A stretch of DNA of 64,000 bases from a virus. The stretch lies in IMG/VR virus record IMGVR_UViG_3300045988_183660, one strand, 5' to 3'. Below, piece by piece: positions 7,374-62,864 of the stretch. How positions within the stretch are numbered: position 1 is the stretch's first letter; each line of letters opens with the position of its first letter. The position numbers were made by a program, and so were the translations under genes. The notes under the pieces are model-generated. The model was not told where the DNA came from. It saw only the letters and a list, made by a program, of their open reading frames with translations, and searched no databases.

Positions 7374-7379
7374 TACTTT

Positions 7380-7784
7380 TTACCTCGCTTTTTTCTGATT
7401 TTGAATATACTTCCTTATTTGTTCTTCTGTATTTTCTGATACAGTCGCTACAAAATAGCTAGGATTCCACAAATGTCCACTCCATAATTTCCCTTTTAAT
7501 TCTTCTCCAAATTCTTTCATAAGTAATCTTGCTGATACACCTTTTAATGCTTTCACCATGTCAGGTATATAATGTTGTGGAGAACAATTTATAAGAAGAT
7601 GAATGTGGTCTTTATCTGTATTACATTCTAATATTTGAAATCCATTATCATCTGCTATTTTACTAAGTATATCTATTAATCTATTCTCTATTTGTTCCGT
7701 AATTATTTTGTGTCTGTATTTTACACACCAAACGATATGGTATTGTATTGAATATACATATCCACGTCCATGAGTTACTTCCAT
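7380..7784 (-). CDS. tnpA: IS200-type Y1 HUH transposase TnpA
   Basis: 134 aa. HIHLLI HUH motif and conserved Y near the C-terminus. Confidence 0.85.
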   Translation of the reverse strand: MEVTHGRGYVYSIQYHIVWCVKYRHKIITEQIENRLIDILSKIADDNGFQILECNTDKDHIHLLINCSPQHYIPDMVKALKGVSARLLMKEFGEELKGKLWSGHLWNPSYFVATVSENTEEQIRKYIQNQKKAR

Positions 7785-8604: not shown

Positions 8605-8967
8605 GTGCTTATGTTTGAAGTAATTAATGAAAAAGTAAGAATGAAATATGATAAAGTGTATCATGGTACAAGCATGGAAAGACTGGAAAAAATCAGAGAG
8701 ACCGAATATATAACAGCAATAGATGATGTATATGTTTCAAATGACATTAACATAGCTGCCAGATATAGTTGGCAAAAAATCAGTTTAAAAGAAATACCAG
8801 TCATTTTAGTTTTTGATATAGATACATTACTAAAAAATAATATTAATATATATAGTTTTGACGGTGTAGATTCAAATAAGTATTTAACTGATGATATTCC
8901 TGCTTATTGTATTTCTCAAATTATCACTCAGGATTCACCACAATACCCTTCAAAGTGGAAAGGTTAA
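8605..8967 (+). CDS. small ART/PARP-like (YHGTS ... GVYVS ... AARYS) protein, copy 1
   Basis: Motif arrangement parallels the DUF3990/PARP HGS...G.Y...S pattern. Has a paralog at 9846. Confidence 0.45.
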   Translation: MLMFEVINEKVRMKYDKVYHGTSMERLEKIRETEYITAIDDVYVSNDINIAARYSWQKISLKEIPVILVFDIDTLLKNNINIYSFDGVDSNKYLTDDIPAYCISQIITQDSPQYPSKWKG

Positions 8968-9845: not shown

Positions 9846-10202
9846 ATGTTCCAAAAAATAAATGAAAGTGTAAAAGAAAAGTATAGTAAAGTGTATCATG
9901 GTACAAGCATGGAAAGATTAGAAAAAATCAGAGAGACCGGATATATAACAGCAATAGATGATGTATATGTTTCAAATGACATTAACATAGCTGCCAGATA
10001 CAGTTGGAATAAAATTACTTTAAAAGAAACACCAGTTATTTTAGTTTTTGATATAGACACCTTATCAAAAAATAATATTAATATATACAGTTTTAATGGC
10101 GTAGATTCAAATAAATATATAACTGATGATATTCCTGCTCATTGTATTCTTGAAATCATCACTCAGGATTCATCACTTTATCCTTCAAAATGGAAAGTTT
10201 AA
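9846..10202 (+). CDS. small ART/PARP-like (YHGTS) protein, copy 2
   Basis: About 90% nucleotide identity to 8630-8967. Confidence 0.45.
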   Translation: MFQKINESVKEKYSKVYHGTSMERLEKIRETGYITAIDDVYVSNDINIAARYSWNKITLKETPVILVFDIDTLSKNNINIYSFNGVDSNKYITDDIPAHCILEIITQDSSLYPSKWKV

Positions 10203-13390: not shown

Positions 13391-13804
13391 ATGACAATAA
13401 GAGAATTAAGAAAATTAACAGGCATGTCACAGAGCCAGTTTGCAAAGAAATATGATATACCACTTAATACATTGCAGCATTGGGAAGGTGGCTATTCAGA
13501 ACCAGCAAGATACTTAGTAAAATTAATAGAAAGTACAATATGCAAAGATAGAAAAGTAATACAGGGAAATAATACTAAAGAAGGAACAATGTATTATTAT
13601 GATGAGCTTAATAAGCTTGTATATGATAATAAGGGCAATTGTTTAAGTCTTGAGATAGACCTTGATGCTACAAGTGAACATAATTTAGGTTTATATCTGG
13701 ATTTTATGTTTGAAGATTATTATAAAGCAAAAAAAAGTTTTGAAGCCCATCTTGATGCAGATAAAAAATCGGATGAAGATATTATATGGGAAAGATTATG
13801 GTAA
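13391..13804 (+). CDS. hipB: XRE-family HTH protein, HipB-like antitoxin
   Basis: N-terminal LRKLTGMSQSQFAKKYDIPLNTLQHWEGG HTH. Lies immediately upstream of hipA. Confidence 0.55.
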   Translation: MTIRELRKLTGMSQSQFAKKYDIPLNTLQHWEGGYSEPARYLVKLIESTICKDRKVIQGNNTKEGTMYYYDELNKLVYDNKGNCLSLEIDLDATSEHNLGLYLDFMFEDYYKAKKSFEAHLDADKKSDEDIIWERLW

Positions 13805-13817
13805 AGGATGTGATTAT

Positions 13818-15032
13818 ATGAGTAATGGAACATATTATTTAATGCATAAAGATATTCCAGTTGCTATTATGCAGCTTGAAGAAGATGATATTAATGCCAA
13901 GCCTTATAAAGTAACAATTAATGCTAAAAACATAGAACATCTTCCAATAGGTGCGAGAATGAATAACATGAAATTTATTGAGTGGTGGCAGGATAGAACT
14001 ATACCCAAAACGAGGCAGGGGGCTAAGAGTGCGTTAGAAAGGCTTGAATATAAGTCTGTTACCAATGCTATGATAGATAACCTTGCCTTAAGTCTTAATG
14101 ACTGTTATTGGATAAAACCATTGGATTCAGACCTTACATGGAAGGATGTTAATTTATTTTCCAATAAGTTTGAAGACAGATTTGGCGAATTAACTTTTAA
14201 TAAAGATTCCGGCTTGGATTTAAGAAATAAGACTAAATTTAAGTTTGCTGTATCTCAGGGAGAAGTACAGAAAAAATGGTGTATAGACAGTGAAAACAGA
14301 CGTTATATGGTAAAAGGCAATTATGGTACATCATATCAGCAGAGTATTAATGAAGTATTTGCGACTAAATTACACGAAGCTCAGGGCTTTGTGAATTTTA
14401 CACCATATTATTTCACTAAAATTGAACTGGAAAATAATATGACTGGACTTGGCTGTTTTTCTTATAATTTTTGCAATGAAAATATTGAAAGCATTTCGGC
14501 ATGGGAATTATTGCAGACTGTTAAAATAAAGCAGAATATGTCATTATATTATCCGTTTAAGCAGATATGCCTTGAGATGGGAATGAAAGAAGAAGACTTT
14601 GACTATTTCATGGATTATGAGATAATGACTGATTTTCTACTTACTAATACTGACAGACATATGAATAATATAAGTATATTAAGAAATCCTGATACACTTG
14701 AGTTCTTAGGCTTTGCTCCTATCTATGACAGTGGTAATTCAATGTTCTATTCAGTTCCTACTAATAAACTTAACAGTGTACATCTTGGTCAGGATAAGGT
14801 ACATTCATTTATTACATCACAGGAAAACAGACTATTATCATATGTAAAAGATAGAAATGTAGTAGACTTATCAAAATTTGATGATATATCTTTTTCGATA
14901 TATGAGAAAGATACTGAACCGAACAGAAGCATAATGCTTGAAGAAATGTTTTATAAGAAAGCTGAAGCTTTAAGAAGCTTTCAAAAAGGCAAAAACATAT
15001 GGAAACCTAAAACTGTACAGATTGAACATTAA
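13818..15032 (+). CDS. hipA: HipA-like Ser/Thr kinase toxin
   Basis: LLTNTDRHMNNISIL (HipA catalytic D.H..N) and APIYDSG motifs. Start at ATG 13818 with an RBS, 13 nt after the hipB stop. Confidence 0.65.
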   Translation: MSNGTYYLMHKDIPVAIMQLEEDDINAKPYKVTINAKNIEHLPIGARMNNMKFIEWWQDRTIPKTRQGAKSALERLEYKSVTNAMIDNLALSLNDCYWIKPLDSDLTWKDVNLFSNKFEDRFGELTFNKDSGLDLRNKTKFKFAVSQGEVQKKWCIDSENRRYMVKGNYGTSYQQSINEVFATKLHEAQGFVNFTPYYFTKIELENNMTGLGCFSYNFCNENIESISAWELLQTVKIKQNMSLYYPFKQICLEMGMKEEDFDYFMDYEIMTDFLLTNTDRHMNNISILRNPDTLEFLGFAPIYDSGNSMFYSVPTNKLNSVHLGQDKVHSFITSQENRLLSYVKDRNVVDLSKFDDISFSIYEKDTEPNRSIMLEEMFYKKAEALRSFQKGKNIWKPKTVQIEH

Positions 15033-25654: not shown

Positions 25655-26416
25655 ATGAAGGAAATAGAATTGAATGATTTTGCAAAGTATGTAAAAGAAG
25701 AATATAACTGTGATATTGAAATAAAAAAGAGTGATAAGCCTGATACATTTGATAACATTTTCAATGGCAGTTTTGTGAATGATTTGACTTATTATGGAAA
25801 GGAAGGCATAAATATGGATTTATCGGAAAGAGCAAAAATTAAACAGGATATTGTTAGAGAGACAGATTGTAAATCGGCTATATATGAGCCTGTAAAAACC
25901 ATATGTCAAGATAAATATTCAAAATTCTATATGGATAATAATGAATTAATGTTCACTACTACAATTCTTGATGAATTATCAGTGTATAAAATGTCAGGGC
26001 ATCCATATGAGCCGGTAATCATTCTGAATTGTTTATCAGATTCAAATAATTCTTTTCGAATTAATGGTGAGAAGTATTATCCGAATTACAATGACAATAT
26101 CAATGAATGGTTATCTTTTTGCAAATACATAAATAGCAGGATTCTTATAAATAAATATGCAGTTAATTATGATAAATATATTCCTGAACCTAATAAAAAA
26201 GCTGCTATAGAAAAGTCATACGGTTCTTGGTATCTATGCATATCAGACGAACACAATGTATTAGATGTATCCGGTTCATTTTCAAAGAATACAATGGCGT
26301 ATATACTGGCTGATAAGGAACAAAAAATATATTTTCAGAAATATAAATATAATGATATTGAAAAGGAAAAATACCTACATGTACATTTCACAAATTTAGC
26401 TGATATTAAAGATTAA
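25655..26416 (+). CDS. hypothetical protein
   Basis: ORF. Confidence 0.4.
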   Translation: MKEIELNDFAKYVKEEYNCDIEIKKSDKPDTFDNIFNGSFVNDLTYYGKEGINMDLSERAKIKQDIVRETDCKSAIYEPVKTICQDKYSKFYMDNNELMFTTTILDELSVYKMSGHPYEPVIILNCLSDSNNSFRINGEKYYPNYNDNINEWLSFCKYINSRILINKYAVNYDKYIPEPNKKAAIEKSYGSWYLCISDEHNVLDVSGSFSKNTMAYILADKEQKIYFQKYKYNDIEKEKYLHVHFTNLADIKD

Positions 26417-26613
26417 TGTTTACAAAGGAGAAGTTCATGTTAATAGAAAATACAAAGGAATCCAGAGAAATAAGAAATGTTGCAGCAACAATGGCTATTG
26501 AAAATATGTATTTAAGTGAATCATTTGTACAGGAATTAATAAAAGTGGCAAATAGAGAAAAAACATCAGAAGAACTTAGACAGGAAGTAATTAAGAAGTA
26601 CTATAAAGAATAA
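26416..26613 (+). CDS. hypothetical small protein
   Basis: ORF coupled to the upstream gene. Confidence 0.3.
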   Translation: MFTKEKFMLIENTKESREIRNVAATMAIENMYLSESFVQELIKVANREKTSEELRQEVIKKYYKE

Positions 26614-26932: not shown

Positions 26933-28432
26933 ATGAAAATAAATAAGAAAATAGCATCTGAGATAATTATAATGATAGGTATTATGGTACTTTCCATATT
27001 AGCCTGCTATAAATCAAAAGGTGTGGATACATATTATATAATAGTTAATGGTAAAAATGCATTGAAATACGGCTTACATACAAATGATTTACTTCTACAT
27101 TATCCTGACCTGTATTTTATTAATCAGCACTGGCTTACCAGTGTACTTTATGTATTCATAGATAAATTTAAAAACGGATTTGCCGTTTATAATATTTTCT
27201 GTACTTTTATTCTTAATTATGCACTTTATAAAGTTATGTGTAAGATTTCTAAAAATAATATTTTAAGTGGTATATTAATAGCTATAGCAAGTACTATTAT
27301 AACAATTGCATTTGAATATTATCAGAGACCTATGCTATTAACAGCCGGTATAATGCTTATATTTATATACTTTTTAGAAGATTATTATGAAACCGGAAAG
27401 AAAAAGTACTTTGTCATTCTTATGCTTTTAAGTATATTAGAAATTAATCTGCATTGTTCTATGTGGTGGATGCTGCCTATATGTATACTGCCATATATAT
27501 GCAATTTTCAAATTATAAACAAAAAAATTGTTTTTAATTTTATAAAAAGCCTTAAAATGTTAATTTTAGAGCTTTTTGTGCTATTTTCATCATTGATTAA
27601 TCCATATGGTATAGAAGCCCCGTTATATGTATTAAAGTCAGGAATAGATAAAAATGTAAAAGAATCCATTGGTGAATTATTGCCTATATATAAAGATACA
27701 CAATTCGGAAGAGTAGCTGTTATGTATATATTAATATTAATAGTAATTGTAAAAACTATTAAATATTATAAAAAGAATAAACAGTTAGATATGCGTTTCA
27801 TCTTTTTTAGCCTTGGAGGAATCCTGATAGCATTTAATGCCTGCCGTAACTATTTATTTACAATTATATTCTGCTTCATGTTGATTGCTTATGTATCCGA
27901 TTATAATTATATTGAAAGCATTAAAGAAGAAAAAAATAAAACAGATATTATAATGGCAGTTATAATAAGTATTTTTATAATATTATCAGGAATTTTACAG
28001 TTTTATTCATTAAATAAAACATATAAATTTAAAGAAACAGAAACAATAGGAACATATTTAGGAAAAGAAGCAGCATTATATTTAGATGATTATTGTGAAG
28101 AAAATAATCTCAATAAAGAAGATATACATATATATTCACATGAAAGTTTATCGAGTGCCTTAGAGTATTATGGATATAAGACTTACGGTGACTGCCGACC
28201 TGAAGCATTAAGAATAACAATGAATAAAAAGTATGATTACTGGCAGGAAGAACATGATTTCAGAAACGGCAGGACTGATTGTAAGGATTATTTGGAAAAA
28301 TATGATATACAGTTTATAACTGCAACCAAGGATTATATGAATTTAATCATAAACAGTAATCCTGAATGGTTTAACAGTCATTATGAACTTATACAAGAAT
28401 ATAAATATGGCAGCTTCTATAAAGCTAAATAA
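26933..28432 (+). CDS. polytopic membrane protein, paralog of the GtrC-like GT-C glycosyltransferase at 49629
   Basis: At least 10 TM segments. Shared LEINLH(C/A)SMW block with 49629-51194. Confidence 0.45.
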   Translation: MKINKKIASEIIIMIGIMVLSILACYKSKGVDTYYIIVNGKNALKYGLHTNDLLLHYPDLYFINQHWLTSVLYVFIDKFKNGFAVYNIFCTFILNYALYKVMCKISKNNILSGILIAIASTIITIAFEYYQRPMLLTAGIMLIFIYFLEDYYETGKKKYFVILMLLSILEINLHCSMWWMLPICILPYICNFQIINKKIVFNFIKSLKMLILELFVLFSSLINPYGIEAPLYVLKSGIDKNVKESIGELLPIYKDTQFGRVAVMYILILIVIVKTIKYYKKNKQLDMRFIFFSLGGILIAFNACRNYLFTIIFCFMLIAYVSDYNYIESIKEEKNKTDIIMAVIISIFIILSGILQFYSLNKTYKFKETETIGTYLGKEAALYLDDYCEENNLNKEDIHIYSHESLSSALEYYGYKTYGDCRPEALRITMNKKYDYWQEEHDFRNGRTDCKDYLEKYDIQFITATKDYMNLIINSNPEWFNSHYELIQEYKYGSFYKAK

Positions 28433-29839: not shown

Positions 29840-32800
29840 ATGACAAGAGATGAAGCTTTTAAAGAAATTAATAGCATACAAAATGATTATATTGATGAAT
29901 TAATAGGATTAATAAATAATCCAGATTATATTATTAATAAAACTATTAATTTTACATCTGCAACTGGTACAGGTAAAACTAAAATGATGAGTAAGTTAAT
30001 AAATAAACTACCAGACTATTTTTTCATTATAACAACATTATCTAAAGGGCAATTACATCTTCAAGTAAAAAATAGCTTAGAAAAAGATTGCGTCAATAAT
30101 AATTTTATTGTATATGGAAATGCTGATTATAAAATAAATAGTATTTTAAGAGCAGATGATATAATAAGAGTATTACCCAAAGATAAGCCTTGTATATGGC
30201 TTAGAGATGAAGGACATATCAGAACGAATAATTTTGAAGAATTATTAATGAATATATGTTATAAAGTAATAAATTTTTCAGCTACAAATACACATAGTGA
30301 TATAAAGTGTAAATTTTCACAAACTATGATGCTTAGAACGGTAAATCAAACAACTGGAACACCTGAAGAAGCTATAAATAAGTTATTAGAAGTAAAAAGG
30401 ATTCATAAAAATATACCTAAATATAATCCCTGTGCAATTTTTAGATGTGTAGGCGGTAATGGATATTTGTATAAATGGATTGTGCAACTTTGTGAAAAAA
30501 ACAATTTAAAATATATAGATATAACAAAAGATGAATATTTAATGTCAGAACTTTGTGAAGATGATAATGAATATGATGTTATAATAAATAAATTTAAAAT
30601 TACAGAAGGTATAGATATCCGGAGAGCGCATGTTTTGTATATGGATAATCAGCCATCTAATGCAGCAACAACTATACAGGCAATTGGAAGATGTCGCCGT
30701 AATGCACTTCTTTACAGAGATGATATTGATATATTTGCACCTGAGAATAAGGATTTATTAGAACAAACAAGAGAATGTTATGTATTTTATAATGTTTGTG
30801 AAATGAAAATAGATACCGATTCAGATGGTGAATTACAATTAGCCTTTTGTAATCATATAACCTGCGAAGAATTAAAAGCAGGAACAACTATAGAAGTTAT
30901 CAATGGACAGCTCCCTAATGGTTTATATGTTATTGAATTGGTAGGAAAAACGGGTAAATATAAAATAGTTAAAGATTCCACAACCGGTTTTAATGTAATT
31001 AAACCATTATCAAATTTTTATGATACCCAAATTAAACATTTTGATAATAATTATTTATACTATGATTCATATGCAAAATTACATATTAGTAATATTAATC
31101 AGTTTCCATTATTAACTACAAAAAAAGAGTTTGATTTTAGCATAGGTGAATATAGAGAGATGCAGGTAGAACCTTACTATGAAATATCAAAGGAAATTAT
31201 AAAGAATAATGTAGAATATAAATTTTCTCAGGATATATTAGATTTTTATAAAAATCAAGCAAAAAAATATATATTCGGTGAATACATTTATAATTTAATT
31301 AAAGAATATTCAGTAGAATTTTATATAAACAAAGATAATTTATATTCATATAAAGAAATTAATATAAATGTTGAAAAATATATATTAGACAATCAAAACA
31401 AAAACGGGCTTAAAATTTTTTGCCAATTTCTCAATGATTTCGAAAATAATATTGTTAATATATCCGGCTTTGAGTATAAGTTAAATGATGTATGTTCAAA
31501 AGATGAATTAATTTTATTGAAAGAAGCATGTATAAAGCAGAAAAATATGCGAAGAACTAATGATGATATAAAATTTTTTATAGATGAATATATAAAAATA
31601 AAGTCAGAATATAAACGCTATAAGCTTATTAGATATTATAAAAACCATGAATTTCTTAAAATATTTGACAATTTAAGTGCTGAAATTTTACCTAAAGATA
31701 ATTTGTGTGATTATATAAGAGAATTTGTTAAATCTTATATGAGTAGAATTGAATCAGATAATAACCTTCAAAACTTTTATATATTAATTCGGCAATTATA
31801 CACCGCACGAAATATAACAATTGATATTGTAAGCGAATTAGAAAAGTGCTGTGATATTTTTGAATTAGAAATGATAGCGTATTGCTGCATAAAAGAAAAA
31901 GAACTTGGATTGAAAGATGAGGAAATAATATTATATCTTGAAAAAATATTAAAAGAACGCCATAATTTTTATTTGAGTGAAAATACCAAAGAATATAATA
32001 ATATTACATATTTAATATTAAATGAAAATTTGTCAGGATTTTATTCACAAATTAATATCGAACCATTTTCAGTTAAAGTAGAATATACAGATGATATACA
32101 GGTACAAAAAAATGATATATCAAGATACTTTGAAAAAATAGATAATAAATTGAAATTATCAAATGATAAAAAAATGCATCTATATTTGTGTACAGAAGAT
32201 ATAAAACTTTGCACTAAAAAAGCGATTGCTTTTAATTATAAAAAAATGCTTGATGATACAATAGAAGAAGTTATTTATTCATATTCAACACTTTTTGAAG
32301 ATGTATCTTCAGATGAACATTATATGATTCGCAATAGATATATACCGGAAACTGGAAGATATGTTGAACAAAAGGATATTGAAAATTATAAATCATATGA
32401 GCCATATGATAAAATAGTAAATGATAAAGAGAGTGCAATTATAGGCGTTGATTTAATGAAACAAATAAAAGTGAATAATGAGCCAGTATGGAGCGAAGCA
32501 AAATCAGTAAGTCAAAAAGTAGGTAATTATAATAAATTAAATGTTTTTATAACGAATAAATATTCAGATGAATTAAAACAGGCATCTTCTCAATATATAA
32601 GAGGGAAAAATCATTTTGAACTTGATACGAAGTGTAATTCAATAATAGGTTATTGCGTTGAATATTATTCAAAATATTTAGTTTACGGAGATAAATATTT
32701 GCATGATTATATAATAAAAGCTCAAAGAGAATCTAATACTAACGTGTGTAACGAATATATTATAGTAAGAGCCTGCATGTTAAAACATAGAGAAATGATG

Positions 32801-33208
32801 ATTAGAAGTTTTGGAAAAGGAGTTGCCAAAGTAATAAAAAGTATTACAATTAAAGAACTTGTAAAAGAAAAGTATAAATATTTCGTCAAATTAGTGGTAG
32901 AATTAGCTGAGAAAACCGCAAGTTATGTAAAAAGAAGTTTATATGCAAATAGGATTCCTAAAGATAATATTGATACAGATTTATCTATAGAACATATAAA
33001 GGGATTAGCAGATTATATTACAGAAGATACGATTTTAGATGTTAAGGTTAGAAATAATATTGATGAAAAATGTATAAGACAAGTTCTTGCATATCATTAT
33101 TTATCTACAAAAAGGTCAGACTTGAATATAAAAAAAGTGATAGTATATGATGCTGTAAGTGATAAAGCTGTTGTGGTAAATATAAGTTCTGATAATATCA
33201 AAAAATAA
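29840..33208 (+). CDS. 1122-aa protein with a compact N-terminal SF2 helicase/ATPase core and a roughly 800-aa uncharacterised C-terminal region
   Basis: SATGTGKT (motif I), DEGH (II), FSATNT (III), QAIGRCRR (VI). Extremely AT-rich and K/N/I/Y-rich. Confidence 0.6.
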   Translation: MTRDEAFKEINSIQNDYIDELIGLINNPDYIINKTINFTSATGTGKTKMMSKLINKLPDYFFIITTLSKGQLHLQVKNSLEKDCVNNNFIVYGNADYKINSILRADDIIRVLPKDKPCIWLRDEGHIRTNNFEELLMNICYKVINFSATNTHSDIKCKFSQTMMLRTVNQTTGTPEEAINKLLEVKRIHKNIPKYNPCAIFRCVGGNGYLYKWIVQLCEKNNLKYIDITKDEYLMSELCEDDNEYDVIINKFKITEGIDIRRAHVLYMDNQPSNAATTIQAIGRCRRNALLYRDDIDIFAPENKDLLEQTRECYVFYNVCEMKIDTDSDGELQLAFCNHITCEELKAGTTIEVINGQLPNGLYVIELVGKTGKYKIVKDSTTGFNVIKPLSNFYDTQIKHFDNNYLYYDSYAKLHISNINQFPLLTTKKEFDFSIGEYREMQVEPYYEISKEIIKNNVEYKFSQDILDFYKNQAKKYIFGEYIYNLIKEYSVEFYINKDNLYSYKEININVEKYILDNQNKNGLKIFCQFLNDFENNIVNISGFEYKLNDVCSKDELILLKEACIKQKNMRRTNDDIKFFIDEYIKIKSEYKRYKLIRYYKNHEFLKIFDNLSAEILPKDNLCDYIREFVKSYMSRIESDNNLQNFYILIRQLYTARNITIDIVSELEKCCDIFELEMIAYCCIKEKELGLKDEEIILYLEKILKERHNFYLSENTKEYNNITYLILNENLSGFYSQINIEPFSVKVEYTDDIQVQKNDISRYFEKIDNKLKLSNDKKMHLYLCTEDIKLCTKKAIAFNYKKMLDDTIEEVIYSYSTLFEDVSSDEHYMIRNRYIPETGRYVEQKDIENYKSYEPYDKIVNDKESAIIGVDLMKQIKVNNEPVWSEAKSVSQKVGNYNKLNVFITNKYSDELKQASSQYIRGKNHFELDTKCNSIIGYCVEYYSKYLVYGDKYLHDYIIKAQRESNTNVCNEYIIVRACMLKHREMMIRSFGKGVAKVIKSITIKELVKEKYKYFVKLVVELAEKTASYVKRSLYANRIPKDNIDTDLSIEHIKGLADYITEDTILDVKVRNNIDEKCIRQVLAYHYLSTKRSDLNIKKVIVYDAVSDKAVVVNISSDNIKK

Positions 33209-33358
33209 TTAATAATAATACAATTTTGCTAGTGGTTTTTCTTGGCATTTCAACTATAATTTTAAATGTTTTAAGAATAATATTTTTCTAAAATGGAGGA
33301 AGGTAAATATATGGAAATATTAATAATCGGATTCTTTTCATTATTTTTCTTAATTAGT

Positions 33359-33396
33359 TTACACGGGTTTACAAAAGCATATAATTGTGTATAATA
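33359..33396 (+). promoter_or_regulatory. promoter of the toxIN module (TTTACA-N17-TGTGTATAAT)
   Basis: Extended -10 consensus TATAAT. Confidence 0.5.
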
Positions 33397-33404
33397 TAAG
33401 TAAG

Positions 33405-33496
33405 AAATCAAATGGATTTCAATAAGAATGTTACGAAGCATGTAAAAAAATCGTTTTAATAGATGTTACGAAGCATGTAAAAAATCGTTTTAATAG
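33405..33496 (+). ncRNA. toxI: ToxI-like type III antitoxin RNA: about 2.5 tandem repeats of 35-36 nt (AATGTTACGAAGCATGTAAAAAAATCGTTTTAATAG)
   Basis: Two near-perfect tandem repeats plus a partial one, placed between the promoter and a terminator directly upstream of a ToxN homolog. Confidence 0.6.
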
Positions 33497-33520
33497 GAGC
33501 TGTAAAATGCAGCTCCTTTT
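33497..33520 (+). terminator. rho-independent terminator separating toxI from toxN (GGAGCTG-TAAAA-TGCAGCTCC + T-run)
   Basis: Perfect stem. Arrangement typical of type III TA loci. Confidence 0.7.
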
Positions 33521-33538
33521 ATATTAGGGAGATATAAG

Positions 33539-34057
33539 ATGAAATAGATTCATGCAGATGAAAAATATTTGGATTATTTAAGAACAATTGAAAGAAGAAT
33601 ACCTAGAACAGACTATGGTTCTGACAAATATAAGCCTTTTTTTGGGGTTTTATTTGAGACAAATGATTTGTATTATATTACACAAGTTTCACATCCGCAG
33701 AAAAGACATGAAAAAATGAATGAGCAAAGGGATTTTTATAAATTATTCAATCCACGAAATCCAAAGGAATTAATAGCTGTAGTGAATCTTAATTATATGT
33801 TCCCTATACCTAAGAACTGTACATATAATTTTCAAAAAAATAATATGGAGTTATATAGAACTTTTAAATCAGATGAAGAAAAAAGCAGATATATAGATTT
33901 ATTAAACAAAGAACTAGAAGCTATAAATAAACTAAATTTAGATGAAAAAGCAAAATATATATATAATTTAAAATATAATAAACCGGATAATAATATTTCA
34001 AAAAGATGTATTGATTTTAAAGATTTAGAAAAATATGCAAAATTATATAAAAAATAA
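33539..34057 (+). CDS. toxN: ToxN/AbiQ-family type III toxin endoribonuclease; ATG-AAA-TAG: in-frame amber stop at codon 3
   Basis: AGGGAG RBS 7 nt upstream of ATG 33539. Downstream frame reads IHADEKYLDYLRTIERRIP...KPFFGVLFE...LIAVVNLNYMFPIP, which aligns with ToxN MKFYTISSKYIEYLK...KAFIGIVLE...LGLINLKFMIPI. The track ORF starts at TTG 33569. Confidence 0.65.
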
Positions 34058-34065
34058 GAATAAGA

Positions 34066-34100
34066 AATGCAACGACTGTCTGATTAATTTCAGGCAGTCT
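34066..34100 (+). terminator. rho-independent terminator CTGTCTGATTAATTTCAGGCAG + T-run (module copy 3)
   Basis: Same module as 25349 and 26650. Followed by a related 25-nt palindromic tail. Confidence 0.65.
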
Positions 34101-48593: not shown

Positions 48594-49598
48594 ATGACAA
48601 AAAGAATTGCAGTGCTAATCCCCTGTTATAATGAGGGATTAACAATCAGAAAAGTAGTAGAAGATTTCAAAACATATTTAGACGGCAGTAATGTAAAGAT
48701 ATATGTTTATGATAATAATTCATCTGATAATACGGTATCAGAAGCTAAAGAAGCCGGAGCAATAGTACGACATGAATATAAGCAGGGTAAAGGCAATGTC
48801 ATAAGACGTATGTTTCGTGAAATTGAAGCTGACTGTTATATTATGACAGATGGTGATGATACATATGATGTAAGTAACTGTATGGAAATGGTTAAGCTTG
48901 TTCTTGAGAAAAATGCTGATATGGTAATCGGTGACAGACTTACCGGTGGATATTTTGAAGAAAATAAACGACCATTTCATAATATGGGTAATACATTAGT
49001 AAGAAAGAGTATCAATAAGATATTTAAAAGTGATATAACTGATGTTATGACCGGTTATAGAGCTTTTAGTCGTAATTTTGTAAAGACATTTCCAGTTCTT
49101 TCAAGAGGTTTTGAAGTTGAAACAGAAATGACTATACATGCAATAGATAAAGGTATGCAGCTTGAGAGTATTACCGTCAATTATAAAGACAGAATTGAAG
49201 GCAGTGTAAGTAAGCTTAATACAATTCCTGATGGTATTAAAGTGTTAAAGACTATCAAGAATATGTTTATGACTTATAAGCCATTTACATTTTTTACAGT
49301 TATAGCAGCTTTTTTAAGCCTTATAAGTACAGGATTTTTAATACCTGTAGTTGTTGAATATGCTCATACAGGAGAAGTAGAAAAGTTTCCTACACTTATA
49401 GTCTGTATGGCAGTATATATGTTAGCAATGCTTATATTTATAGCAGGTATCATTTTACAGAATTTAAGACGTAAGGAATTAACTGATTTTGAATATACCT
49501 TAAACAATGTTTCTTGGCAGGGTAAAAATCCTTCAATTGATGCTATTCCTATGAATAGAGAAAAAATAGCAGTCAATAAAAAGGATAAAACAGCTTAA
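48594..49598 (+). CDS. GT2 glycosyltransferase with C-terminal TM helices (GtrB / polyprenyl-phosphate sugar transferase-like)
   Basis: IAVLIPCYNE, DNNSSDNT, TDGDDTYD (DXD) and two C-terminal TM segments. Confidence 0.7.
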   Translation: MTKRIAVLIPCYNEGLTIRKVVEDFKTYLDGSNVKIYVYDNNSSDNTVSEAKEAGAIVRHEYKQGKGNVIRRMFREIEADCYIMTDGDDTYDVSNCMEMVKLVLEKNADMVIGDRLTGGYFEENKRPFHNMGNTLVRKSINKIFKSDITDVMTGYRAFSRNFVKTFPVLSRGFEVETEMTIHAIDKGMQLESITVNYKDRIEGSVSKLNTIPDGIKVLKTIKNMFMTYKPFTFFTVIAAFLSLISTGFLIPVVVEYAHTGEVEKFPTLIVCMAVYMLAMLIFIAGIILQNLRRKELTDFEYTLNNVSWQGKNPSIDAIPMNREKIAVNKKDKTA

Positions 49599-49628: not shown

Positions 49629-51194
49629 ATGAAAGTTAATAAGAAAACATCTATAAAAAATAATAAAGTATCCACAACAGCCAGTACAAATCCTTTAAGT
49701 TGGAAAGAATCTTTATCCTTTTCACTTAAAGTTTCGGCTGTATTAGCATTAATAGCAATAGTTATTCTAATGGCAATGCAATGGCAGGATAATGACCTGT
49801 ATTGGATAATTGCAACCGGCAGGGAACAGTTAAAGAATGGTGTATTAAAAATAAATCCATTTTTTAACTGTGGTGATATAGGATTTATTGCACAGCAATG
49901 GTTATGGAATGATATAGCAGCTGTATTTGATAAGTTTAATATGCTTATACTTTTACAGTTATTACAGATAGCGTTATTTATATTTATATCAACAACCTTA
50001 CTTATTTTTGAAGGCATGAAAAAGTCATATGCATACATATTAAGTATATCAATTTTACCATTTTTATACTGTTTACATTTAAGACCTGAGCTTATAACAC
50101 AGATGTTATTAATAGGTCAGTGTATAATAACAGAATGGTATATAGAAGAACGACAGGAAGGTAAAAAAGTGCAGAATACCTATTTAGCTTTTTTAGGTAT
50201 AATGGCATTAGAAATTAATTTACATGCAAGTATGTGGATATTACACTTTGTTATGTTTTTACCTTATCTTGTTTCAATTGATTTCACAAAAGAATCTAAG
50301 AAAGCTATGTTTAAAGATATGGTTTTAACAGCCTTTAAGAGGATGAAAATATTTATCGTTCCGGCACTTCTTATGGTTATTGGTATGTTTACTAATCCTT
50401 ATGATATTAAGGGCATTACTTATCTGTTTGATAGTTTAAAAGCCGGTATAGTAACTAAATTAAATATCAGTGAACTTCAGAAACCGGATTTGTTCTCTAC
50501 ATATGGATTACAGCTTCTTATAACTCTTATAGTTTTAATAGTTGTTATAATATTAACAATATTAAAATATAAGAAAATAAATGAAGGAAAAGAAAAGAAG
50601 ACACCATTATATTTCACAGAACATATATGTATGATACTTGGATTATTATTTATGTGTCTGTTTAAAGTAAGATATATATATTTCTTCGGAGTAGTAGCAG
50701 TACATTTATTCTGTTTACTTAAGAATCTTCAGAATACAAAATATGAGAAAATATTCAATGTAATTATATGTATATTTGCGATTTTAGCATTTGCAGTTGC
50801 TTTTAATCATACATCAAAAATAAAGGACTTTAAGCATAATACAAATTATGAAGAAATAGTCCAGTATCTTGATGAACATGAAGAAAAGGATGTTAAGATA
50901 TTTACTGATTTTAATAGTGGTGGTTATTTTGAGTATAAAGGATATAAAACATTCTTTGATGCCAGACCGGAACTGTTTTCGAAAGTTATTAATGAAGAAT
51001 ATGATTATTTAGATGAATATGTTAAGTTTATGGATGCTACAGATTCAGAGTTTTGTAATAACTTTATTAATAAATATAATTTTAAATATTATATTGTAAG
51101 TAATGTTAATACCCGTATTAATACTTTCCTTTCTGATAATGACTGGACTTGCGTGGTTAAAACATCTTCAGCTTCACTTTATGTAAAAAAATAA
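49629..51194 (+). CDS. polytopic GT-C-type membrane glycosyltransferase (GtrC/YfhO-like)
   Basis: At least 10 TM segments. Lies directly downstream of the GtrB-like gene. Paralog at 26933. Confidence 0.45.
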   Translation: MKVNKKTSIKNNKVSTTASTNPLSWKESLSFSLKVSAVLALIAIVILMAMQWQDNDLYWIIATGREQLKNGVLKINPFFNCGDIGFIAQQWLWNDIAAVFDKFNMLILLQLLQIALFIFISTTLLIFEGMKKSYAYILSISILPFLYCLHLRPELITQMLLIGQCIITEWYIEERQEGKKVQNTYLAFLGIMALEINLHASMWILHFVMFLPYLVSIDFTKESKKAMFKDMVLTAFKRMKIFIVPALLMVIGMFTNPYDIKGITYLFDSLKAGIVTKLNISELQKPDLFSTYGLQLLITLIVLIVVIILTILKYKKINEGKEKKTPLYFTEHICMILGLLFMCLFKVRYIYFFGVVAVHLFCLLKNLQNTKYEKIFNVIICIFAILAFAVAFNHTSKIKDFKHNTNYEEIVQYLDEHEEKDVKIFTDFNSGGYFEYKGYKTFFDARPELFSKVINEEYDYLDEYVKFMDATDSEFCNNFINKYNFKYYIVSNVNTRINTFLSDNDWTCVVKTSSASLYVKK

Positions 51195-51308: not shown

Positions 51309-53159
51309 ATGTCAGATAAAACAGTAGAAACAATAAAGAAAATAATGATAGATAATAACCTGTCAAGACAGGAATTTGCGAATAAAATAGGAGCAGCTGC
51401 GGGAACTGTAAAAAAATGGGAAAAAGGAAGAACACCATCCTTTGATAATATAAAAAGGATAGAAAATGTGTTCGGTATCAATGTAATGACCGGACATATA
51501 GTAAAACCGGTTAAAAAAGTAATTGATATGAGAAAATACACAGCGGATATAAAAACTGCATATAGCAGTAAACCATCCGTAGTGCAAAAACCAACCGGCA
51601 GCGACAAACCTGATTGCTCTCCTAAGCCTTCTTTTGTAGAACAGAAGAAAACAGATGCGGATACACTTAATATAGAGCAGTTTAAGATTTTTAATGAACT
51701 TGTAGCAGGAGAAAATATATTCCTTACTGGTAATGCAGGTACAGGTAAAAGTTATCTTGTAAATGCTTTTAGTGATTATTGTGATGATAACGGAATAAAC
51801 CTTGTTAAAACAGCTCCTACAGGTGTAGCTGCTTACGAAATAGGTGGTTCAACACTTCATTCTCAGTTTAAATTAGGACTTGGCATCTTAATTGAGAAAC
51901 CTAAGTGGAAGAGTATATATAACTTTTTACTTAATACTGACGTACTTCTTATTGATGAAATAAGTATGGTACGTCTGGATACATTTGATTATCTTGCACA
52001 GATACTTATACTTGCTAATAATAAAAGAAATGAAGAAAATAAAAAGAATATACAGCTTGTTTTTGTAGGAGACTTTTATCAGTTAGCACCGGTTATAAAT
52101 AAAAAAGCTGATGAAGATGTAATATTTGCTGACCATTATGGATGCAATATAGGTGACGGATATGCATTTCAGAGTAAATACTGGAAACTGTTTAAAGTTA
52201 AATTAAGATGTTTAACACAGATTATGAGACAGGATGATAAGGATTTCTGTAATGCTCTTGATAAGTGTAAAACAGGTGATAATACATGTTTACAGTATTT
52301 TATGACACATACATCAGCAAATGAAAATGAAGGTATATGGGTATGTGGAAAGAATGATACAGCACGAAAGAAAAATGAAGAAGGACTTGAAAAGATTAAT
52401 AATGAACTCTTAGTATCTGAAGCTGAATACAGTGGAGATGTATCAAAGGCAGATGGTCTTGCAGAAGATAAGTTTGTATACAAGGTTGGTGCAAGAGTAG
52501 TAATAACATGTAATGATAGTGCAGGAGAGTATAATAATGGCTCACTTGGTATTATTACAGATGTTAATGGTTTAAGTGGTGGATTATTTACCAGTATTAT
52601 TACAGTTAAACTGGATAACGGACATACAGTAATGATTGATAAAAAAGAATCTGATAAATATAAGTATGAAGTTATAGAAGAAGATAAAGAAGTTGAAGTG
52701 ATTAATGAAGATGGTACAGTCACCAAAAAAACTGTTAAGGAAAAGAAGCTTAAAAAGAAAAAGACTGGAAGTGTAACACAGTTTCCATTAAAGCTTGGAT
52801 ATGCAGTAACCATACATAAGTCACAGGGGCAGACGTATGATGCTATGAATTTAAAGCCTGAGATATTTGCAAATGGACAATTATATGTAGCTTTAAGCAG
52901 ATGTAAAAGTGCAGCCGGTATATATATAGAAGGGTATTTAAGTAAACGTATGGTAATGGCATCATCTGAAGTAATAACATATTATAATAATCCTGAAAAT
53001 TATAGCTTCTTTGATAAGGGTGAAGAAAAAATTGAAATTATTATACCACTTAAATATAAAGAAAAAATCGAACAGCTTATAAAGGAATGGGATAAAACCG
53101 ATAAAAATATTCCTGATAAAAATATCCAGACTATTAAACAACAATGGAATTTTGCGTGA
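51309..53159 (+). CDS. XRE-HTH::PIF1/RecD-family helicase fusion
   Basis: N-terminal LSRQEFANKIGAAAGTVKKWEKG HTH, then an S/P/K linker. Helicase motifs TGNAGTGKS, LLIDEISMV, VFVGDFYQLAPV, KSQGQTYD, ALSRCKS. Confidence 0.7.
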   Translation: MSDKTVETIKKIMIDNNLSRQEFANKIGAAAGTVKKWEKGRTPSFDNIKRIENVFGINVMTGHIVKPVKKVIDMRKYTADIKTAYSSKPSVVQKPTGSDKPDCSPKPSFVEQKKTDADTLNIEQFKIFNELVAGENIFLTGNAGTGKSYLVNAFSDYCDDNGINLVKTAPTGVAAYEIGGSTLHSQFKLGLGILIEKPKWKSIYNFLLNTDVLLIDEISMVRLDTFDYLAQILILANNKRNEENKKNIQLVFVGDFYQLAPVINKKADEDVIFADHYGCNIGDGYAFQSKYWKLFKVKLRCLTQIMRQDDKDFCNALDKCKTGDNTCLQYFMTHTSANENEGIWVCGKNDTARKKNEEGLEKINNELLVSEAEYSGDVSKADGLAEDKFVYKVGARVVITCNDSAGEYNNGSLGIITDVNGLSGGLFTSIITVKLDNGHTVMIDKKESDKYKYEVIEEDKEVEVINEDGTVTKKTVKEKKLKKKKTGSVTQFPLKLGYAVTIHKSQGQTYDAMNLKPEIFANGQLYVALSRCKSAAGIYIEGYLSKRMVMASSEVITYYNNPENYSFFDKGEEKIEIIIPLKYKEKIEQLIKEWDKTDKNIPDKNIQTIKQQWNFA

Positions 53160-53233
53160 ATCAGACTTAATTTTGCTTCACCTTTGAAACAATAGATATA
53201 TATGTTATAATGTATAAAAGGACGGTAATAATT

Positions 53234-54493
53234 ATGTATAAAATAAATGAACATATAAAGAGATATCTGCTTAATGAATATAAAGGTTCTGAGCAAAAAG
53301 ACACTATTATATTAAATGATGGCAATAAGTATTTATTAAAGAAGCCAGACCCGACCAGAGAAAAAAATAAAAGGGAATTGCTTTCATATATTAATAACGT
53401 GTATTCAGAATATATAGGCTGCAATATTGCAAAACTATTAGGCTTTGAAGTACAGGAAACAAAATTAGGTGAATATACAACTAAAAATAGATATGGTGAA
53501 GAAGTCACTAAAATTGTATGCTTATGTAAGGATGTAAGAGAAAAAAATGAAAAGATGCGTGAATTTGATACTATATCCTTAAGTTCTGATGTACCGACCA
53601 ATATTGTAACCTTTGATATAACAGAAAATATCATTTCAAATATTCAGGAAAGATTAAATCTATCAGATAATACAACACAGGAAATAAGAGAATTTTATTA
53701 TAAATTGTTTATTTTAGATGCTTTTATCGGAAATACGGACAGGCATAATGGAAATGTAGCTATATTATTAGATGAAAATGATGAACTTTCAAGAATTTCT
53801 CCAATATATGATTGTGGTTCATGTCTGCTGCCATTAGTTGATGATAAAGAGATAATCAATTGTAATTTTCAAAGTCTGGCATTATCCATAAATTCAGTAA
53901 TAAGGACAAATGATATTAAAACAATCAGGTATAATGATTTTTTAATTAATCATAGAGATGAAAACATAGATAATGCTTTATTGGAAATTATCTGCAATAT
54001 TAATCTTGCTGAAATAAATAAAATGATAGATAATACAGATTATATATCTGAGATAAGAAAAGACTTCTATAAAAACATTCTTGAGTTAAGATATAATAAA
54101 ATATTAATCCCTGCATTAGAACAGATTTTCCAAAAAGATAATATATATCTAAAACTCATTCCAGATAATATAGACCTGTATAAAATCTATCGGGATAATA
54201 TTAAGCTTATATCAGATTTAGCTTTCTTTGATAGGCACACTATTTCCTGTGGAAAGAAAAAAGTAGACATTATGAAAGTCAATAAAAAATATGCTCTATG
54301 TATTAAAGATGATAAATGCATAGGACTTATACCTATAAGGTCAAATAATAATGAAGTAAGAGATGCTATCAGATTCTTTAATAAGATTGGATTTGATATA
54401 ATAAATGATAAGATTCAAATTGTAGATTCATTAGTGTATAAACCTAAGCAGGAAAAGCCTAAAATAAAAAAAGACATAGATTTGGAAAGATAA
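53234..54493 (+). CDS. HipA-like kinase (HipA_C-type catalytic motifs), second copy in the window
   Basis: FIGNTDRHNGNVAIL and PIYDCGS motifs. AAAGGA RBS before ATG 53234. Confidence 0.5.
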   Translation: MYKINEHIKRYLLNEYKGSEQKDTIILNDGNKYLLKKPDPTREKNKRELLSYINNVYSEYIGCNIAKLLGFEVQETKLGEYTTKNRYGEEVTKIVCLCKDVREKNEKMREFDTISLSSDVPTNIVTFDITENIISNIQERLNLSDNTTQEIREFYYKLFILDAFIGNTDRHNGNVAILLDENDELSRISPIYDCGSCLLPLVDDKEIINCNFQSLALSINSVIRTNDIKTIRYNDFLINHRDENIDNALLEIICNINLAEINKMIDNTDYISEIRKDFYKNILELRYNKILIPALEQIFQKDNIYLKLIPDNIDLYKIYRDNIKLISDLAFFDRHTISCGKKKVDIMKVNKKYALCIKDDKCIGLIPIRSNNNEVRDAIRFFNKIGFDIINDKIQIVDSLVYKPKQEKPKIKKDIDLER

Positions 54494-55495: not shown

Positions 55496-55900
55496 ATGAG
55501 TACAGATTCATACATTGTAATTATTCTAATAATATTTTTTGTAGCTATGTTTCTAACTATGTTTAGATTGATACATTTAATATCCGGTCTTATTGCTTGT
55601 TTCGTTGCATTAATGGCAGCTACACCAGTAATGTCTTTTGATGTATATTCTCATACATCATCAGTGTCGCAAATCTCAATACAGGAAATAAATAAAATAA
55701 GTCCAAGGGATAATAGTGATACATTATTCAATGTCACATATACGGATGCAGAAGATATTAATAGAAAGATAACTGTTAAAGAAATAGTTTACGATTCGGA
55801 TACTACATATATTGAAAAGGCAAGAAAAACATTTTTGTTTCTTTATGAGGACAATTATGTGTTACATGAGCCGCAGGAATTTATAAATAATAATAATTAA
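55496..55900 (+). CDS. small membrane-anchored protein, paralog family A member 1
   Basis: TM helices plus the conserved C-terminal domain NVTYTD...K.TVKEI.YDSD.TYIEKARK.FLFLYED.YVLHEP. Confidence 0.45.
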   Translation: MSTDSYIVIILIIFFVAMFLTMFRLIHLISGLIACFVALMAATPVMSFDVYSHTSSVSQISIQEINKISPRDNSDTLFNVTYTDAEDINRKITVKEIVYDSDTTYIEKARKTFLFLYEDNYVLHEPQEFINNNN

Positions 55901-55915
55901 AGAAAGGAAGAATTT

Positions 55916-56314: not shown

Positions 56315-56330
56315 AGGTAAGGAGAAAATT

Positions 56331-56738: not shown

Positions 56739-56751
56739 AAAGGCTTATGAT

Positions 56752-57111: not shown

Positions 57112-57146
57112 GCAACGAGAATAGAGAGTAAAAAGGAGAAAATATT

Positions 57147-59651: not shown

Positions 59652-59669
59652 GGGGAGAAAATATAAGTT

Positions 59670-62854: not shown

Positions 62855-62864
62855 AAAGGAAAGT

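Follow-up and report, generated by a model that had tools for sequence, protein, structure and literature searches.

A solitary, uncharacterised helicase-nuclease family found among bacterial immune genes

The window, a 64,000-nucleotide stretch of DNA, carries a gene for a 1122-aa protein in which an SF2 motor, a hypervariable middle module and a RecB/Cas4-type nuclease are joined in one polypeptide (Table 1). The protein is one of a small, uncharacterised family whose members occur singly among bacterial immune genes. It is probably a self-contained immune effector that degrades nucleic acid on behalf of the host or of a mobile element, and it is plausible that the family is a new single-gene kind of helicase-nuclease defence, comparable to Hna, DdmD and DruE.

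Motor, middle module and nuclease

The protein falls into three parts. The N-module consists of two RecA-like lobes (residues ~30–320) followed by a conserved beta-rich extension (residues ~320–395). Motifs I, II (DExH), III and VI occur in order within the lobes, as expected of superfamily 2; the first-pass annotation had pointed to these ordered motifs near the N-terminus, and they are indeed present in the translation and invariant among 89 homologs. RadD, Mfd, UvrB and RecG are among the top matches to the motor, and HsdR, RadD and Snf2 proteins all outscore Res. The ATPase motor is intact and of the dsDNA-translocase (HsdR/RadD/Snf2-like) type, with a dN/dS of 0.05.

The remaining ~800 residues had been described as lacking any recognisable motif. 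This does not apply to the last ~270 residues, which contain both a conserved PD-(D/E)xK signature (GLADYI...ILDVKV...QVLAY) and a match to the nuclease fold. In the predicted model, D1067 and K1069 lie on a strand (1064–1069), and the helix that follows motif III (1076–1089) carries a QxxxY motif of which Q1081 and Y1085 (Q1081-V-L-A-Y1085) are kept in at least 90% of sequences, while Y1087 is invariant. At the domain level, the C-module is thus a member of the RecB/Cas4 clade of PD-(D/E)xK nucleases. Its top matches are Dna2, AdnAB, AddA and RecBCD, and distant family members match PD-(D/E)xK and Cas4 profiles. E941 is a candidate for the motif-I acidic residue and may be catalytic. A C...CxxC...C pattern is absent from the C-module, where the only conserved cysteines are C932, C939 and C979; the four-cysteine Fe-S cluster is a trait of the Cas4/AddB/Dna2/Exo5 subset only. 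The nuclease is intact, with every catalytic-type residue conserved and a dN/dS of 0.09. Because the C-terminus is a Cas4/RecB-type nuclease, the protein is a helicase-nuclease fusion, which is a recognised kind of enzyme, and the earlier impression of an unassignable architecture no longer stands.

The middle module is confidently folded in the predicted model (pLDDT mostly >85), which divides it into beta-rich, long helical and alpha/beta subdomains, and yet it is hypervariable. Across the family its mean identity is 20–28%, its length ranges from 240 to 490 aa, and the median pairwise effective identity is 7%. Its dN/dS is 0.18–0.21, compared to 0.05 and 0.09 for the N- and C-modules, so that it evolves several-fold faster, and it is reshuffled by recombination: a mosaic breakpoint lies near residue ~480 in one pair (L015/L016). 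Recombination between family members is seen in the mosaic of R. flavefaciens FD-1 and Ruminococcus sp. YRD2003, close homologs with 99% identical motors. Positive selection on the module was not demonstrated, the region-wide omega of ~0.2 being that of relaxed purifying selection. The module had no match in Pfam and none among PDB sequences when searched as a profile.

Table 1. Features of the helicase-nuclease gene and the neighbouring toxIN module, in window coordinates.
Feature	Position	Strand	Basis or remark
Helicase-nuclease fusion gene, complete, stop codon included	29840..33208	+	ORF list
N-module, aa 1–395	29840..31024	+	SF2 ATPase/translocase core and beta-rich extension
Motif I (Walker A), SATGTGKT (K46)	29957..29980	+	Translation check; T42-G-T-G-K-T47 invariant in 89 sequences
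Motif II (Walker B), DEGH (D123, E124)	30206..30217	+	Translation check; invariant in 89 sequences
Motif III, SAT	30278..30286	+	Translation check; S147 and T149 invariant in 89 sequences
Motif VI, QAIGRCRR, arginine finger region	30677..30700	+	Q280, G283, R284, R286 and R287 invariant in 89 sequences
Middle module, aa 396–850, hypervariable	31025..32389	+	Fold family unassigned
C-module, aa 851–1122	32390..33205	+	RecB/Cas4-clade PD-(D/E)xK nuclease domain with helical insertion
Helix YCVEYYSKY with invariant E941	32651..32677	+	Alignment of 89 sequences; model helix 930–949
Nuclease motifs II and III, GLADYI (D1058) and TILDVKV (D1067, K1069)	33002..33049	+	Invariant in 89 sequences
QxxxY motif (Q1081...Y1085, Y1087), helix after motif III	33080..33100	+	RecB/Cas4-clade type
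toxIN/AbiQ-like type III toxin-antitoxin, not part of the helicase-nuclease unit	33358..34099	+	
Promoter-like elements of toxIN	33358–33395	+	11/12 matches
toxI repeats	33428–33496	+	2.0 copies of a 34-nt repeat
Hairpin and T-run between toxI repeats and toxN	33495–33527	+	
toxN	33569–34057	+	ToxN_toxin E 4e-41; AbiQ E 2e-20
Terminator after toxN	34074–34099	+	

Distribution and genomic neighbourhoods

The family is small, with about 140 representatives in 1.84 billion proteins and ~370 members. An identical protein (P0001) is present on the source contig, and 18 homologs can be aligned to the window protein over its full length at 45–53% identity. The hosts are rumen and gut anaerobes, including Firmicutes, and the patchy distribution across phyla indicates that the family is horizontally mobile. 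The base composition of the gene, on the other hand, is a weak sign of recent acquisition and was rejected as such: the gene had been called markedly more AT-rich than its neighbours, and its GC content is indeed lower (24.5%, compared to a gene mean of 29.1 ± 3.3%), but it is no outlier (z = −1.4, sixth lowest of 48 genes).

The initial description of a large helicase-fused protein has held up, and none of the curated families or defence libraries (Pfam, NCBIfam, PADLOC) accounts for it. Against Pfam, NCBIfam, PHROGs and PADLOC, the protein matched nothing beyond helicase fragments below threshold, and searches of PDB sequences with the single sequence or with profiles of the full length, the C-module or the middle module gave nothing meaningful. 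An exhaustive search of a representative library with the C-module profile returned 140 matches, which comprised only this family and fragments, and did not find the nuclease in other architectures. The PADLOC candidate system PDC-S61 was considered and set aside: the match covers only the nuclease motif segment of the 253-position model, and therefore reflects a shared domain rather than family membership. The literature was also searched for a solitary "HsdR-like" PICI defence gene, with no usable result.

At 22 distinct loci, the only gene cluster in common is the helicase-nuclease gene itself; it has no obligatory partner. Restriction, TIR/SIR2, DUF4238 or toxin-antitoxin (TA) genes are present in 7–8 of 10 annotated contexts, a descriptive count made without a background control. 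These contexts include GmrSD with a type II restriction-modification pair; a TIR gene 15 bp upstream of the helicase-nuclease, plus SIR2; GmrSD-HNH with an EcoRI-type methylase; Mrr/HNH; an SMC/AAA_15-type ATPase with HNH and an SF1 helicase; and ParE/Phd with ArdC. DUF4238 genes also occur among the neighbours, and the 148 flanking ORFs include PDC-S01, C5-methyltransferases and pVip-like proteins. Some homologs occupy cargo positions in mobile elements, and two contexts look purely housekeeping or unclear. The first-pass annotation had named two findings that would speak against a defence role, a cognate Mod nearby and a consistent absence from defence islands. At about 30 loci the gene has no Mod methyltransferase beside it, Pfam annotation of neighbours revealed no adjacent N6/N4 Mod-type gene, and the methylases that do occur near homologs are all type II C5 or EcoRI-type enzymes, each with its own nuclease; defence-island contexts recur among the homolog loci.

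The window itself is plasmid- or ICE-like. Apart from the helicase-nuclease, none of its proteins had a BLAST match in any other locus, and a backbone common to this element and the P0074 elements, which have similar 108- and 185-aa genes, was ruled out.

Function and alternative readings

What does such a protein do? In the proposed mechanism, the motor would load on the DNA of an invading phage or plasmid, or else on ends or structures in DNA that arise during infection, and ATP-driven translocation would feed the DNA into the C-terminal nuclease for degradation. The variable middle module might set recognition, or might control release from an autoinhibited resting state like that of the Hna, DdmD and DruE dimers.

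Hna from Sinorhizobium meliloti may be the best functional analogy. It is a helicase-nuclease that forms an autoinhibited, ATP-bound dimer, in which the nuclease is restrained until a phage cue, the phage SSB, releases it and triggers abortive infection (PMC13381803). Like Hna, the window protein is a single polypeptide with N-terminal SF2 lobes and a C-terminal PD-(D/E)XK domain, both conserved, and no partner gene. Hna has a DinG/XPD-like motor with a reduced Arch domain (PMC13381803), however, and homology to it was not found. DdmD, from the Vibrio cholerae anti-plasmid system DdmDE (PDB 8u0w), has a similar size and order (~1100–1200 aa, SF2 helicase followed by C-terminal PD-(D/E)xK nuclease), an autoinhibited resting state and a part in the degradation of invading DNA. 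Unlike DdmD, the present family has no conserved neighbour, no Piwi/Argonaute protein (the DdmE pAgo) among its annotated neighbours, and no sequence similarity to DdmD that we could find. DruE of Druantia, a DUF1998 helicase that forms an autoinhibited dimer and degrades DNA once licensed, and HmaA of the Hma system, a Swi2/Snf2 enzyme with nickase activity, are likewise defence helicases with PD-(D/E)xK-type nuclease activity, but they belong to multi-gene systems (DruH-DruE; HmaABC), whereas this family has no conserved partner. PADLOC gave no DruE or Hma match; the only Druantia match was a weak one to DruK, a generic PD-(D/E)XK protein, in one distant member.

There are also observations that run counter to a defence role. 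Repair and recombination also use helicase-nuclease fusions (Dna2, AddAB and AdnAB, the top nuclease matches), and no sequence-detectable homology to validated defence proteins was found.

A tentative extension of the defence reading, possible though doubtful, is that the middle module serves as an exchangeable cassette for specificity or sensing in a new type of stand-alone immune helicase-nuclease, re-assorted by recombination against a conserved motor and nuclease. If so, one effector chassis could be retargeted to different phages, plasmids or DNA modifications, and in some lineages would additionally be wired to TIR, DUF4238 or radical-SAM partners.

The middle module could instead be the target-recognition domain of an ATP-dependent restriction endonuclease, either type IV-like (modification-dependent) or specific for a sequence or structure, and would itself bind foreign or modified DNA. 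The motor would then travel along dsDNA and the PD-(D/E)xK domain would cleave it without the need for a methyltransferase; the protein would still serve defence, restricting directly rather than upon infection-triggered release from autoinhibition. We consider this unlikely. Pfam and PDB profile searches of the middle region gave no sign of a modified-base reader such as SRA or DUF3427, and RecB/Cas4-clade nucleases are mostly helicase-fed ssDNA nucleases or exonucleases, not dsDNA endonucleases. The type IV enzyme SauUSI, with its N-terminal PLD nuclease and a DUF3427 domain at the C-terminus that reads modified cytosine, shares only the motor with this family, which matches neither PLD nor DUF3427. 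In the type I enzyme HsdR, the PD-(D/E)xK domain is N-terminal rather than C-terminal, and HsdM/S are required. HsdR, Res and SauUSI all lack both the RecB/Cas4-type QxxxY nuclease and the hypervariable central module.

Rather improbable is a role in DNA processing for the host or a mobile element, whether in end resection, recombination and repair (AddAB/AdnAB/Dna2-like) or in conjugative transfer and establishment. Repair and recombination helicase-nucleases are the top matches to the nuclease, RadD, Mfd, UvrB and RecG are among those to the motor, one homolog comes immediately downstream of a T4SS coupling protein and has a topoisomerase in its vicinity, another sits between aspS and housekeeping genes, and the window is itself plasmid- or ICE-like. 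The C-module has its fold and D...(D/E)xK...QxxxY signature in common with Dna2, AddAB, AdnAB, RecBCD and Cas4. Cas4 stands alone; in the others a helicase motor feeds the nuclease, but that motor is SF1, not SF2, and the 4-Cys Fe-S cluster carried by Dna2, AddB and Cas4 is not evident here. The repair nucleases and Cas4 serve core or CRISPR-associated roles and have conserved partners, which this family lacks. Furthermore, the gene has no fixed place in any element backbone, and backbone genes never co-occur with it. It is rare and patchy across phyla, unlike core repair functions, and neither of the curated collections PLSDB (72,556 sequenced plasmids) and INPHARED (50,697 phage records) contains a homolog. 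A hypervariable central module would be unusual in a housekeeping enzyme, and most of the genes around it have to do with restriction or defence.

An orphan or degenerate type III Res subunit, with its Mod partner elsewhere or lost, would likewise have a C-terminal PD-(D/E)xK endonuclease behind a ResIII-type SF2 motor, but this explanation is very improbable: Res (EcoP15I) needs Mod and no Mod adjoins the gene at any locus, the motor is closer to HsdR, RadD and Snf2, a variable insert of 240–490 aa is foreign to Res, and strong purifying selection acts on every catalytic motif (omega 0.05–0.1), so the gene is not decaying.

The position of the gene directly before toxIN had suggested a functional pairing, for example one composite system in which the helicase-nuclease senses and toxIN executes abortive infection. 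The module is a genuine type III TA, with a ToxN-family endoribonuclease behind tandem antitoxin RNA repeats and a terminator, although the toxI RNA has no Rfam match. Read-through into it is possible, since the two lie on the same strand, with 360 bp from the stop codon to toxN and no terminator-like hairpin between that stop and the toxI promoter-like element. However, a pairing should be conserved, and a tblastn search of 29 loci placed ToxN next to the helicase-nuclease in the contig of the window alone, with no match at the 28 other fetched loci (about 21 distinct). toxIN is equipped with a promoter-like element and terminators of its own, type III TA modules are autonomous Abi systems, other lineages have different genes (TIR, DUF4238, radical-SAM) tightly apposed to the helicase-nuclease, and no neighbour of any kind is conserved. 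A coupled system is thus highly unlikely; the juxtaposition is coincidental, and toxIN is presumably a separate, independently transcribed defence module within the same cargo region.

Implications

Rather than a new composite system, the plasmid- or ICE-like element in the window would carry the helicase-nuclease and toxIN as two defence-type cargo genes that are independent of each other. Should a role in defence be confirmed, the growing class of Hna, DdmD, DruE and HmaA would gain a new single-gene family, and a gap in the annotation libraries would be filled, since PADLOC, Pfam and NCBIfam currently yield only sub-threshold helicase matches. The family comes from Firmicutes of the rumen and gut, a habitat poorly represented among experimentally validated defence systems. 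Its layout is unusually clear, the motor and the nuclease being conserved and the module between them hypervariable. Natural near-isogenic variants differ for the most part in the middle module, which could be swapped, and this makes the family a tractable model for how helicase-nucleases are targeted or licensed.

A motor and a nuclease in a single chain

The helicase-nuclease chain combines an intact SF2 motor with an intact RecB/Cas4-type nuclease, both under strong purifying selection. Gene calling on the source contig, an ENA metagenome scaffold of 114,678 bp, gives the identical protein. The four SF2 motifs lie where the first-pass annotation placed them, and none of their key residues varies in the alignments, one of 19 and one of 89 homologs. 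The AlphaFold2 model (89 sequences) is confident over the full length (mean pLDDT 88.8, pTM 0.75). The gene had also been described as markedly AT-rich; its GC content is indeed below that of its neighbors, but only modestly: it is 24.5%, where genes average 29.1 ± 3.3% (z = −1.4), and ranks sixth from the bottom among 48 genes. At least seven cysteines of the motor module are invariant in the 89 homologs (C118, C140, C157, C198, C239, C285 and C313), and C84, C203, C337 and C342 are kept in at least 90%; they may form a structural metal site.

No curated library identifies the protein. The Pfam matches were confined to Helicase_C and ResIII fragments below threshold; PADLOC gave only a DrmA fragment, PHROGs only a generic helicase and NCBIfam no match. 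Neither the single sequence nor the family profile had a meaningful match among PDB sequences. The C-module matches Dna2 (7.3), AdnA (7.0), Cas4-Cas1 (6.8), Cas4 SSO0001 (6.6), MGME1 (6.4) and RecC (6.4). Independent sequence-profile support for its predicted nuclease identity comes from distant family members, in which the homologous segment matches PADLOC PDC-S61 (3e-7), an RT-associated PDDEXK model (1e-6), three Cas4 models (down to 2e-4), DruK and Pfam PDDEXK_3. At the domain level the protein falls within SF2 and, through its C-module, within the RecB/Cas4 clade of PD-(D/E)xK nucleases. The C-module is a divergent, family-specific nuclease, since an exhaustive search of 1.84 billion representatives with its profile recovered 140 proteins, all from the same family or its fragments. 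In some members the nuclease directly follows the motor (~aa 405–720) and precedes a different C-terminal extension.

Coordinates of features in the window, in the helicase-nuclease protein (aa) and in fetched loci carrying family members (L handles)
Feature	Position	Strand	Remarks
Helicase-nuclease gene	29840..33208	+	ATG-to-stop ORF, 1122 aa
N-module	aa 1-395		mean identity to window protein 69% (89 sequences)
Middle module	aa 396-850		mean identity 20-28% (89 sequences); length 240 to 490 aa
C-module	aa 851-1122		mean identity 60% (89 sequences)
SATGTGKT	aa 40-47		SF2 motif
DEGH	aa 123-126		SF2 motif
SAT	aa 147-149		SF2 motif
QAIGRCRR	aa 280-287		SF2 motif
Cysteine-bearing motor-module segment	29840-31024		aa 84-342
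toxIN/AbiQ-like type III TA, complete	33358-34099		promoter-like elements, repeats, hairpin + T-run, toxN
toxI repeats	33428-33496		2.0 copies of a 34-nt (34-35-nt) repeat
toxN	33569..34057		ToxN/AbiQ toxin; Pfam E 4e-41, PADLOC AbiQ E 2e-20
Shine-Dalgarno-like AGGGAG	33526-33531		~37 nt from TTG start of toxN ORF (33569)
In-frame ATT	33548		better spacing to AGGGAG than TTG
IS200/IS605 element	6270-7784	-	367-aa ORF 71% identical to annotated Clostridioides tnpB
Duplicated ORFs	8605-8967; 9846-10202		118-120 aa, 85% identical, ~0.9 kb between
HipA_C-like kinase gene	13710-15032		below Pfam cut-off
HipA_C-like kinase gene	53210-54493		above Pfam cut-off
HTH-PIF1 helicase fusion	51309-53159		precedes second HipA_C-like gene
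Two-gene pair	25655-26613		253 aa + 65 aa, ATGA start/stop overlap
Polytopic membrane proteins	26933-28432; 49629-51194		~500 aa, 26% identity, weak EpsG-like match
Family-2 glycosyltransferase	48594-49598		adjoins second membrane protein
Paralogous small-ORF arrays	55496-57566; 59256-60089; 62447-63284		131-139 aa, mutually 23-56% identical
Mosaic pair	L015 10001-13327; L016 1739-5065		R. flavefaciens FD-1; Ruminococcus sp. YRD2003
DUF4238 gene	L025 9075-10001		overlaps helicase-nuclease start
Radical-SAM/pVip-like genes	L026 329-1648; L027 1488-2768		directly upstream
303-aa unknown ORF	L035 7112-8023		overlaps helicase-nuclease start

A fast-evolving, recombining middle module

The module between motor and nuclease evolves fast and recombines. 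It folds confidently in the AlphaFold2 model, with beta-rich, long helical and alpha/beta subdomains, and it has no Pfam match and no PDB match by sequence. Median pairwise effective identity is 7% in the middle versus 68% in the N-module and 58% in the C-module, and in some homolog pairs the motors are 82–85% identical while the middles are practically unalignable. Among three close homologs dN/dS is 0.05–0.06 in the N-module, 0.18–0.21 in the middle and 0.08–0.10 in the C-module; purifying selection is therefore 3–4 times weaker on the middle module. In the R. flavefaciens FD-1 and Ruminococcus sp. YRD2003 genes, dS is ~0 over residues ~60–480 and 0.5–1.5 in the remainder, with identities of 99% (motor), 76% (middle) and 92% (nuclease). 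This break in dS places recombination near the motor/middle junction, and the clear mosaic pattern is evidence of a recent exchange inside the gene.

Distribution, carriers and neighbors

Among 5.8 billion protein clusters the protein has over 366 relatives, almost all of them metagenome proteins without a name. The family is rare (~140 representatives at 50% identity), uncharacterized and outside current defense libraries. Its members come from Lachnospiraceae, Ruminococcus, Oscillospiraceae and Mageeibacillus, and sporadically from Acholeplasmatales, Erysipelotrichaceae, Bacteroidales, Sodaliphilus and Treponema, a horizontally mobile distribution. None was found among PLSDB plasmids or GenBank phages. 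Three very large IMG/VR contigs classified as viral (394, 230 and 150 kb) carry members; these are candidate jumbo phages, phage-plasmids or misclassified plasmids.

The window itself is a plasmid- or ICE-like element, with a T2SS/Tad-type ATPase and platform protein, TraX, DUF932, an SLT transglycosylase and a ProQ-like protein. Almost all its genes lie on one strand, the IS200/IS605 ORFs being the only sizeable minus-strand genes. The hip and IS605 loci reported earlier are present, as two HipA-like genes and a tnpB; the 134-aa ORF beside the latter is presumably tnpA. The paralogous membrane proteins may modify the cell surface or a neighboring 3171-aa surface protein. The 253-aa/65-aa pair, possibly a small two-gene module, gave no confident family match; the 65-aa member shows weak fragments of DUF3870 and PIN-like families.

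The helicase-nuclease has no obligatory partner gene. It is itself the one cluster that all 22 distinct loci share, and no homolog of any other window protein lies within 8–10 kb of it in any other locus. What recurs is the kind of neighborhood, which is of defense type: restriction, defense or TA genes occur in ~7–8 of 10 annotated contexts, a descriptive count without matched background. The Pseudobutyrivibrio sp. C4 locus has GmrSD and an NgoFVII-type type II R-M pair, and on 21 contigs SIR2 accompanies a TIR gene that lies 15 bp upstream. Other neighborhoods carry GmrSD-HNH with an EcoRI-type methylase and IS605 OrfB; Mrr and HNH genes in otherwise chromosomal surroundings; an SMC/AAA_15-type ATPase with an HNH gene and a 1239-aa SF1 helicase; or ParE/Phd with ArdC and RadC. 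DUF4238 is a further neighbor, as is a set of GIY-YIG nuclease, D5 primase and DUF2971 genes, and 148 flanking ORFs from 18 further loci yielded PDC-S01 (4e-95), C5-methyltransferases (1e-114) and pVip-like radical-SAM proteins (8e-23). One homolog directly follows a T4SS coupling protein gene, one lies between aspS and housekeeping genes, and one further context is uninformative. The first-pass proposal of a candidate novel defense gene is reasonable.

The genes that abut it upstream, overlapping it or ending no more than 15 bp away, differ greatly between lineages; at L010, L011, L012 and L013 it is the TIR gene that ends 15 bp 5' of the helicase-nuclease gene. Such apposition could reflect lineage-specific two-gene systems or merely dense packing of defense cargo.

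How might the helicase-nuclease act?

Candidate helicase-nuclease defense genes are common in defense islands. Hna, DdmD, DruE, HmaA and Res likewise join an SF2 motor to a PD-(D/E)xK nuclease, and the architecture is of an already known kind; what is distinctive is the hypervariable central module. The protein belongs to none of these families. DdmD is ruled out by the absence of a pAgo partner, DruE and HmaA by partners and profiles, and SauUSI by nuclease type and reader domain.

Taking all versions together, the helicase-nuclease is probably a defense protein, and we lean towards a single-gene immune effector released by an infection cue. The motor would translocate on the DNA of an invader, or on ends or structures that arise in DNA during infection, and hand the DNA to the C-terminal nuclease, while the middle module, by analogy, would set recognition or keep the enzyme autoinhibited. 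Autoinhibition is suggested by precedent: phage SSB releases the Hna dimer from autoinhibition by ATP (PMC13381803); DdmE opens the autoinhibited DdmD dimer; and DruE is an autoinhibited dimer that DruH remodels on forked DNA.

The structural relatives suggest two possible sub-mechanisms. The motor is closest to dsDNA translocases from restriction enzymes, suggesting that dsDNA cleavage is coupled to translocation; this is the reading of direct, type IV-like restriction, which is unlikely. The nuclease is closest to helicase-fed ssDNA nucleases and exonucleases, pointing to processive degradation from ends or nicks. A role in repair or MGE processing is quite improbable. No Mod-type methyltransferase lies beside the gene at any locus; this absence rules out type III Res membership and makes an orphan Res very improbable.

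Coupling to toxIN in one system is equally hard to credit. The first-pass annotation was right that toxIN lies 3' of the gene, as profile matches, repeats and a hairpin with T-run between toxI and toxN attest, but the functional pairing is unsupported: ToxN adjoins a family member only in the window's own contig. With no terminator after the helicase-nuclease gene, read-through into toxIN is possible, though nothing requires it. From its sequence, toxIN appears autonomous: two overlapping TTTACA-N16-TATAAT promoter-like elements, which match best in the region (11/12), stand immediately 5' of the repeats, and the region has just two terminator-like hairpins, one after the repeats and one after toxN. 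Rfam has no family match for the repeats. As the Pfam alignment starts only at position 12 of the profile, the true toxN start is uncertain; AGGGAG is the only good Shine-Dalgarno-like sequence.

Tentatively, and with some doubt, the family may share one conserved chassis of motor and nuclease whose targets change as middle cassettes are exchanged, in some cases with functional links to TIR, DUF4238 or radical-SAM partners. Its three-part layout and natural mosaics make the family readily testable.
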